Source: a virus
Strand: one strand, 5' to 3'
Virus genome (UHGV): UHGV-0106067
DNA: 62,562 nucleotides
A model generated the notes under the pieces. It was not told the DNA's origin. It worked only from the letters and a program-made list of their open reading frames with translations, and made no database searches. The position numbers and the translations under genes were made by a program. The stretch's first letter is position 1. The number at the start of each line of letters is the position of its first letter. This document shows, piece by piece, positions 40,565-40,705 of this stretch.

Positions 40565-40705
40565 CTACTGCTTACACTGTAAGAACGCCGCAAACTCCGC
40601 TCCCCACAAATTCAGCCGGAACTCACACAACGAGCCGTGTAACATCCAGATGGTGAAGATTACCGTCATACAAATTGTGACAGTGATGAGCGATTTTTGC
40701 GACAT
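40565..40705 (-). CDS. Hok-family type I toxin (HokA/HokE-like)
   Basis: 46-aa ORF MSQKSLITVTICMTVIFTIWMLHGSLCEFRLNLWGAEFAAFLQCKQ with SD caggagg 8 nt upstream; compare recalled HokA ...FTWMIRDSLCELHIKQESYELAAFLACK; not in ORF track. Confidence 0.55.
   Translation of the reverse strand: MSQKSLITVTICMTVIFTIWMLHGSLCEFRLNLWGAEFAAFLQCKQ

Follow-up and report, generated by a model that had tools for sequence, protein, structure and literature searches.

A second hok locus beside lom in a 933W-like phage genome, probably a type I toxin-antitoxin cassette without mok

How might a hok toxin gene be controlled when the leader open reading frame (ORF) of the plasmid R1 system is apparently missing? 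The question is raised by the phage genome UHGV-0106067, a stretch of 62,562 nucleotides (nt) that is called the window throughout, in which a Hok-like ORF of 46 codons lies on the minus strand in the gap behind the lom gene. We consider it probable, at roughly 0.7, that this lom-proximal locus works as a type I toxin-antitoxin cassette of the hok/sok type, with an RNA switch wired to hok's own ribosome site, and that a stx-negative temperate phage resembling 933W carries it as a moron, placed between lom and the late gene that comes next.

Two features define the gene:
40565..40705, minus strand: hok coding sequence of 46 amino acids (aa), with a hydrophobic N-terminal stretch and the cysteines C27 and C44
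40714..40719, minus strand: hok Shine-Dalgarno (SD) sequence AGGAGG, inside a conserved SD-occluding hairpin

The translation is MSQKSLITVTICMTVIFTIWMLHGSLCEFRLNLWGAEFAAFLQCKQ, which reads as a hydrophobic segment, LITVTICMTVIFTIWML, followed by GSLCEF ... AAFLQCKQ, and the SD sequence (40719-40714) stands 8 nt 5' of the ATG. A first-pass annotation of the window had placed a 46-aa ORF with a strong SD exactly here, leaving the strand unstated, and had called it HokA/HokE-like. The profile search that it proposed matches residues 8-44 to Pfam HOK_GEF (PF01848) at 33.2 bits (curated cut-off 22, E=4e-8), and PHROG 251 ('MokW-like host killing') is matched at E=2.8e-24. The family was named correctly and HokA is indeed the closest K-12 paralogue (45% identity), yet the best NCBIfam model, HokA (NF007290), scores 38.4 bits, below its equivalog cut-off of 89. 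A large-database search returned 56 homologues from E. coli, Salmonella and Shigella, nearly all of exactly 46 aa, and every named one is labelled 'Hok/Gef family protein'. An alignment of 20 relatives shows fourteen invariant residues, C27, E28 and C44 among them, and the length and these residues are unchanged across E. coli and Salmonella. The window hok differs from that of locus L012 by 8 synonymous and 0 non-synonymous changes, the ratio of non-synonymous to synonymous substitution rates (dN/dS) against distant clades is 0.17-0.35, and the variable sites number 24, 13 and 32 at the three codon positions. At the level of sequence, the ORF is thus confirmed as a genuine Hok-family membrane-toxin gene and is, by its substitution pattern, under purifying selection; because of the family matches, the conserved relatives and the synonymous-biased substitutions, we judge that the peptide is probably made and selected.

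Neither the annotation of the gene nor the toxicity of its peptide is new. The locus, taken as a 541-nt region, was found in 1,551 of 5,426 complete E. coli genomes, and in the matches inspected, O157:H7 included, the PGAP/RefSeq label is 'Hok/Gef family protein' (WP_000078907.1). Deposited phage records mostly leave the ORF unannotated or 'hypothetical', and an identical ORF lies in an unannotated gap after lom in the references of 933W (NC_000924.1, 45660-45800) and VT2-Sakai/Sp5 (NC_000902.1, 44701-44841). The earlier description of the gene as unannotated therefore stands for most phage records, these two among them, and falls for the RefSeq/PGAP chromosomes. The toxicity assay suggested at that stage had, unknown to the annotation, been published for the exact peptide, which is entry 72_1589 of a high-abundance cluster, cloned as plasmid LRP157, and is reported as toxic (Table S2, Escalera-Maurer et al., bioRxiv 10.1101/2025.08.07.668861). 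In that 2025/26 survey, 42 of 45 tested Hok homologues were toxic on overexpression, the three named non-toxic ones being other sequences, and two hok copies occurred in only 3.5% of hok-carrying phages; it covered coding sequences only and explicitly set aside Mok, Sok and mRNA structure (bioRxiv 10.1101/2025.08.07.668861). The paper on hokW-sokW says nothing of another hok locus in the Sp5 prophage (PMC8621323). No description of a lom-proximal hok or of a mok-less hok was found in the literature searched, where absence is no proof; what seems undescribed there is the locus architecture, the second, overlooked hok locus of 933W/Sp5, and the absence of mok together with a predicted direct switch.

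The sense RNA was compared among relatives. Seven loci from species genomes and 80 from IMG/VR were collected and reduced to 43 distinct sequences of mRNA length, with an identity to the window of 60-100%, which form the alignment A2 and are the relatives referred to below. Three of the seven species-genome loci lie in assemblies with non-enteric labels, and the diversity came from the IMG/VR scan. In these three (L005, L006 and L008, from Xanthomonas pisi, a Planococcaceae metagenome-assembled genome and Vagococcus sp.), an enterobacterial hok of cluster 72, the cluster of entry 72_1589, is present with 76-100% identity and is most likely assembly contamination. The elements of the predicted mRNA are as follows:
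40895..40915, minus strand: lom intrinsic terminator, a terminator-like hairpin by hairpin prediction, taken as the upstream boundary of the cassette
40884..40889, minus strand: hok promoter -35 TTGCCC, overlapping the tail of the lom terminator; conserved
40861..40866, minus strand: hok promoter -10 TAGATT; conserved
40838..40854, minus strand: predicted 5' end of the hok mRNA and tac element GGGUGCCUUUCGGCUGA; Rfam position 1 aligns at 40854
40796..40805, minus strand: ucb-like box GAAAGGCCCC, the alternative partner of tac in the RNAalifold consensus
40724..40731, minus strand: dcb or anti-SD segment GCGCCUCU, pairing with GAGGC or with the hok SD
40534..40555, minus strand: stable 3' stem-loop GACGGGGACGAAAGUCCCCGUC just after the stop codon, with covariation; presumed protector of the 3' end of the processed mRNA
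40500..40517, minus strand: fbi (fold-back inhibition) element UCAGCCGAUAUGGCACCC, pairing with mRNA nt 1-17

A generic sigma-70 scanner missed both the hok and the Sok promoter, which were recognised from their conservation and from homology to the R1, hokW and hokA loci. The arrangement TTGCC[C/G]-17 nt-TA[G/A/C]A[T/G]T-6 nt-GGGTGCC is kept in lom-context (933W-like) relatives and in P2/ogr-context relatives alike, the latter carrying the cassette after ogr at the end of P2-like prophages. One IMG/VR prophage (L059) has two tandem cluster-72 hok loci beside an ogr-like gene, at 2029-2169 and 2501-2641 (472 bp apart), the upstream copy being divergent (MPQKTIIVSILCLTMLLAIWMIHRSPCEFRLNIMWSEFAAFLQCKQ).

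The minimum free energy (MFE) structure of the full-length RNA (359 nt; -156.3 kcal/mol, z -7.2) pairs the first 17 nt with fbi (nt 1-7 and 10-17 with nt 338-355), and in the 3'-truncated MFE structure tac pairs with ucb. On A2, RNAalifold favours GGGUGCCUUUC:GAAAGGCCCC, the stem that tac and ucb form in the active R1 mRNA. This alternative is paired in 99.8% of cells with invariant columns, is equally compatible with the alignment and is also predicted by folding of the truncated RNA. When the full-length structure is laid on the relatives, 92% of cells are paired, against 34-44% in slid controls, and 22 pairs are altered on both sides, against 8.5 +/- 1.6 in shuffles (0/500). The tac element and the fbi core GGCACCC are invariant, and the long-range helix adjoining that core has three strongly covarying pairs; the 22 pairs include the long-range pairs 106:345, 116:335 and 117:334 between the leader and the 3' untranslated region. 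The 3' stem-loop holds two pairs with compensatory changes (in 19/43 and 24/43 sequences). The SD-occluding hairpin (UAGCGC-CUCUCC ... GGAGG-GCGCUA) occurs in every clade at -12 to -17 kcal/mol (-13 to -15 in nearly all), with the exception of L011 (S. diarizonae) at -6.6, and in 10 sequences both partners of its pair 132:143 are altered. Finally, a permissive local search of 601 nt aligns Rfam RF01794 (sok / hok leader sense) end to end at 40854-40694, with 42.1 bits against a gathering threshold of 59 and E=4e-8. On the plus strand, the 3' stem-loop followed by CGGTTTTCCT (40533-40556) scores as an intrinsic terminator with no plus-strand gene nearby; it could halt antisense transcription that enters hok from its 3' side.

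The leader departs from the R1 plan at one point that the first-pass annotation overlooked: it appears, from its reading frames, to lack the mok leader ORF. The features involved, with the window's other hok locus as a comparison, are:
40768..40772, minus strand: GAGGC at the position of the mok SD in hokA and hokW, invariant in the 43 relatives, with no start codon after it
40763..40810, minus strand: short upstream ORF MWKGPESNILFNPRP, non-conserved and no equivalent of mok, stopping 57 nt before the hok ATG
6570..6960, minus strand: first hok locus, hokW/HokD-like, 51 aa, with coding sequence 6636-6791 and a mok-like ORF 6795-6848, identified by Rfam RF01794 and its Sok promoter

In the window, no ORF starting with ATG, GTG or TTG in any upstream frame reaches the hok start, and none reaches it in 32/43 relatives. 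Where the hokW-like locus and the intact hokA locus have the mok AUG, the lom-proximal locus reads GAGGCCCUAACC AUC AUA CCU UAA. In intact hokA the motif is GAGGC-N6-AUG, its AUG sharing the frame of hokA, and in the first locus GAGGC-N7-AUG opens a mok-like ORF (6795-6848, minus strand) of 17 codons, MTYKLRLASYVPKGKEK, which stops 4 nt ahead of the hok ATG; in the 933W annotation, mokW is an in-frame extension with the same stop as hokW. The upstream AUGs at 40810 and ~40838 were considered as substitutes for mok and rejected, their frames and stops being unconserved: across relatives the upstream ORFs have scattered lengths, and their stops spread from -118 to +137 relative to the hok ATG. 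In R1, translation of mok is described as mandatory ('absolutely required') for that of hok. With the mok leader ORF apparently absent, the R1 mechanism, in which Sok blocks mok translation, could not apply.

On the opposite strand, the elements of an antisense RNA were found:
40711..40739, plus strand: Sok-type promoter, identified by conservation, with -35 TTGCCT (40711-16), a 17-nt spacer and -10 TAACCT (40734-39)
40746..40806, plus strand: predicted Sok-like antisense RNA of ~61 nt, both ends being estimates

The pattern TTGNNN-17/18-TAACCT is present in 43/43 distinct relatives. The predicted RNA would consist of a variable, single-stranded 5' tail of ~20 nt, a long stem-loop (40766-40801) and UUUCC, and it spans nt 48-109 of the hok leader. 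The hokW-like locus has the same Sok promoter hexamers and a different 5' tail, so that the earlier suggestion of a separate antisense RNA for each hok is supported as far as sequence can tell. Cross-regulation between the two Sok RNAs was considered and is unlikely, since the tails differ and non-cognate duplexes are far weaker.

Folding predicts three states of the lom-proximal mRNA:
full-length: tac:fbi, ucb:GAGGC and anti-SD:SD paired, ribosome site closed
3'-truncated: tac:ucb and GAGGCCCUAACC:GGUUAGCGCCUC paired, SD hairpin reduced to 3 bp
truncated with the Sok target blocked: SD hairpin re-formed, ribosome site closed

The free energies (kcal/mol) needed to open the segment from the SD to the AUG are:
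window, hok site: full-length 13.3, truncated 6.2, truncated with Sok target blocked 11.2
42 relatives, hok site (medians): full-length 12.0, truncated 6.9, truncated with Sok target blocked 11.7
hokW-like locus, hok site: full-length 9.8, truncated 10.3, truncated with Sok target blocked 12.7
hokW-like locus, mok site: full-length 8.3, truncated 3.4

At the hok site, the truncated form opens more easily than the full-length form in 42/42 relatives, and blocking the Sok target raises the cost again in 41/42. In the mok-containing hokW-like control, truncation opens the mok site and the hok site stays shut. The opening energies among relatives and this contrast support, as predictions, a switch that acts directly on the hok ribosome site and is independent of mok.

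A working model of the cassette would run as follows. The weak, conserved promoter would start a hok mRNA of ~350 nt at ~40854, in which tac:fbi and ucb:GAGGC form and the anti-SD CCUCU shuts the SD, keeping translation off. Trimming from the 3' end back to the hairpin at 40555-40534 would let tac:ucb form, and the pairing GAGGCCCUAACC:GGUUAGCGCCUC would draw the anti-SD away and turn translation on. Sok bound to the GAGGC region would free the anti-SD to close the SD again, presumably yielding an RNase III substrate, and Hok would be produced once Sok is lost. Such a loss could follow the shut-off of host transcription by a superinfecting phage, or Q-dependent late transcription that passes the lom terminator and runs against the Sok promoter. 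The outcome would be membrane depolarisation, either helping lysis, as with hokW, or aborting infection; the cassette could equally well serve abortive infection or prophage retention.

Several points weigh against this model. Every regulatory step in it rests on thermodynamic prediction and comparison, and the published toxicity constructs had an artificial SD and promoter (bioRxiv 10.1101/2025.08.07.668861). The Rfam and NCBIfam scores are below the curated cut-offs, and a search at Rfam gathering thresholds detects the first locus only. No covariation supports the pairings of tac, ucb, the fbi core and GAGGC, since all of these are constant among the relatives, and the tested structures were taken from the window's own sequence, which inflates the percentage of paired cells. 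In the Sok terminator there are only three U's. In 11/43 relatives, a long ORF from upstream AUGs, which are buried in the tac/ucb stem, overlaps hok, and a mok-like function is possible in some clades. Moreover, no terminator occurs within 90 nt after fbi in the window or in any lom-context relative, the RNA running into the next gene, so that the 3' end for exonucleolytic activation is undefined and the mRNA may enter that gene; P2/ogr-context relatives have a strong intrinsic terminator ~20 nt after fbi. A terminator-like hairpin on both strands at 40382-40405 (ACGCCTGC ... GCAGGCGT and a T-rich tail), inside the coding sequence of the next gene and ~100 nt after fbi, may mark the place where the full-length hok mRNA really ends in the lom context.

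As to its setting, the cassette adjoins this gene:
40938..41669, minus strand: lom (Pfam Ail_Lom, 114.6 bits)

The first-pass annotation had put hok in a 430-bp gap after the lom terminator, which agrees with the position of the lom hairpin (40915-40895) and with a measured distance of 429 bp from lom to the next annotated ORF (133 aa, annotated start 40508). Its own promoter and its place beside lom, which the 933W record gives as expressed in lysogens, suggest that the cassette behaves as a moron. No stx or tRNA genes were found anywhere in the window. The claim that two different hok paralogues occur in the element, one behind Q and the other behind lom, held: both are present, with only ~24% identity over 29 aa, and a six-frame profile search of the window found no third hok ORF. 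The first of them (Rfam RF01794 at 6960-6786, minus strand, 118.4 bits) lies directly downstream of the antiterminator Q gene (Phage_antitermQ, 161 bits, 6991..7521, minus strand) and ninG. The hokW primers of Takada et al. closely match this locus, YO-357 containing ATGAAGCAGCAAAAGGCGATG, the first 21 nt of its coding sequence. In 933W and Sp5, hokW lies near attR on the opposite strand, and its homologue in the window lies after Q. Because the stretch between the two hok loci, integrase included, is contiguous with single phage records, both loci belong to one circularly permuted 933W-like genome.

Among the alternatives, the one that survives best concerns the biological role and is compatible with the proposed direct-switch mechanism. 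It makes hok a late-lysis accessory and not an addiction or defence gene, expressed by Q-antiterminated read-through of the lom terminator, with the fold-back and Sok merely silencing it in the lysogen. The gene is co-oriented with lom and the late genes downstream, no terminator intervenes after hok, late transcription would oppose the Sok promoter, and the element's other hok directly follows Q; HokW of Sp5 is made only after RecA-dependent induction and doubles phage release (PMC8621323). We nevertheless regard this role as possible but doubtful, since the same cassette, with its own promoter and terminator, is found after ogr in P2-like prophages that lack lambdoid late read-through, and the existence of these copies makes late read-through unnecessary for its persistence.

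Another alternative is that the loss of mok disabled Hok synthesis and left a translationally silent relic, kept as an RNA structure, as a Sok or terminator element, or as a hitch-hiker of lom. Most chromosomal hok loci of K-12 are considered inactive in such a manner, mok translation is mandatory in R1, the hok SD lies within a hairpin of -15 kcal/mol and the lom context has no dedicated terminator; in addition, chromosomal hokA, hokB and hokC gave no post-segregational killing, according to the introduction of the preprint (bioRxiv 10.1101/2025.08.07.668861). This reading is unlikely in view of the protein-like substitutions (8 synonymous to 0 non-synonymous, with the dN/dS and codon-position values given above), the fixed length and 14 invariant residues across E. 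coli and Salmonella, the conservation of both promoters in two unrelated phage contexts, the published toxicity of the peptide on overexpression, and the predicted exposure of the SD by the switch in 42/42 relatives.

The weakest alternative, a canonical hok/mok/sok as in plasmid R1, with a translated leader ORF coupled to hok and blocked by Sok, is very improbable: the remaining R1 elements are all present, GAGGC is conserved at the mok SD site and an upstream ORF overlaps hok in 11/43 relatives, but the frames upstream of the window hok are closed or have no ATG, GTG or TTG, the mok AUG is replaced by AUC AUA CCU UAA, the upstream ORFs begin inside the tac/ucb stem with scattered stops, and the indels of the region are not multiples of three.

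Returning to the directly switched cassette, we tentatively extend it to its family, at somewhat less than even odds. Cluster-72 hok may be a mok-independent branch of hok/sok in which GAGGC, a remnant of the ancestral mok SD, serves only as a pairing element and Sok acts as an 'anti-anti-anti-SD'; in phages of the 933W/Sp5 type late read-through may be its trigger, and it could then mask part of the phenotype of a hokW-sokW deletion.

The gene that follows the cassette is probably annotated too long. A PHROG 610 profile aligns from residue 9 of the 133-aa protein, so that ATG 40484 is a more likely start than PGAP's 40508, 8 codons too far upstream; ATG 40484 (minus strand) is preceded by the Shine-Dalgarno-like GGTGAGAG. 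An overlap of fbi with the start codon of this gene at ATG 40508 was considered and rejected, since 40508 is probably an over-long start call. Locus L030 carries the same protein, starting near the equivalent of ATG 40484. In L030, an ORF of 398 aa with a signal-peptide-like N-terminus (2993-4189) lies between the hok cassette and the PHROG 610 gene, as in some lom-context relatives; because of this insertion, the junction right after fbi may be a recombination or insertion point for further morons.

Elsewhere in the window, the usual stx position after Q and the first hok is taken by a 653-aa protein with an N6-adenine methyltransferase domain (Pfam N6_Mtase, 76 bits) and, behind it, a 364-aa ORF (3212-6327, minus strand); the two look like restriction-modification or defence cargo in place of stx. 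The small RNA STnc100 (Rfam RF02076, 149 bits) lies at 2809-3025 (minus strand), just upstream of a 657-aa ORF (628-2601, minus strand), which we take, from its position just downstream of the stx-equivalent site, to be presumably a NanS-p-type esterase. At 16002-16189 (plus strand), Rfam isrK and C4 antisense RNA are matched side by side, with 61 and 77 bits respectively and over threshold in each case; we assume that the pair resembles the P1/P7-type c4 antisense RNA that controls an antirepressor.

The locus bears on how prophage hok genes are read. The only functional study of one, on hokW-sokW of Sp5, was interpreted as if there were a single locus, and 933W and VT2-Sakai/Sp5 are the most-studied Shiga-toxin phages. 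If the proposed switch is real, a widespread, selected, mok-less subfamily would demonstrate that the toxin's own ribosome site can come under the control of a rewired hok RNA switch, and the elements needed for mutational testing of the direct switch are all mapped. The case also illustrates how type I toxins slip past curated RNA and protein thresholds (Rfam 42 vs 59, NCBIfam 38 vs 89 bits) and past ORF-length cut-offs.

Compared with known systems, the lom-proximal locus shares with hok/mok/sok of plasmid R1 a small inner-membrane toxin with an LCE motif, a long, structured mRNA with a 5' end that is predicted to pair with the 3' fbi or the internal ucb, a cis-antisense promoter just upstream of the hok start, and a stable 3' hairpin that separates the stop codon from fbi. 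It differs from R1 in having no mok ORF and a predicted switch that opens hok's own ribosome site, in lacking a terminator after fbi in the lom context, in a peptide of 46 aa (52 in R1), and in its score of 42.1 bits, under the gathering threshold of 59, with the family model RF01794. The closest characterised paralogue is the chromosomal hokA of E. coli, between glyS and cspA/E (45% identity), which follows the same logic of 5' GGGUGC and 3' GCACCC; both genes hard-code the two cysteines (SLCE ... FLxCK), so that recoding by TadA would be unneeded. hokA, however, still has its in-frame mok AUG, 6 nt behind GAGGC, and is a fixed chromosomal locus (5,422/5,426 genomes), whereas the lom-proximal hok has no such AUG and is phage-borne. 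The hokW-sokW system of Sp5/933W (Takada et al., 2021, PMC8621323) is likewise a prophage-borne hok/sok of the same phage lineage, its homologue being the first hok of the window, and it is the only prophage hok/sok with an assigned role, aiding lysis and release after induction; its toxin belongs to a different cluster (~24% identity), it has an annotated mokW, and the lom-proximal locus was outside that study. The same entity as the lom-proximal hok is Hok cluster 72, where the identical peptide is 72_1589 and the lom context is undiscussed (bioRxiv 10.1101/2025.08.07.668861).

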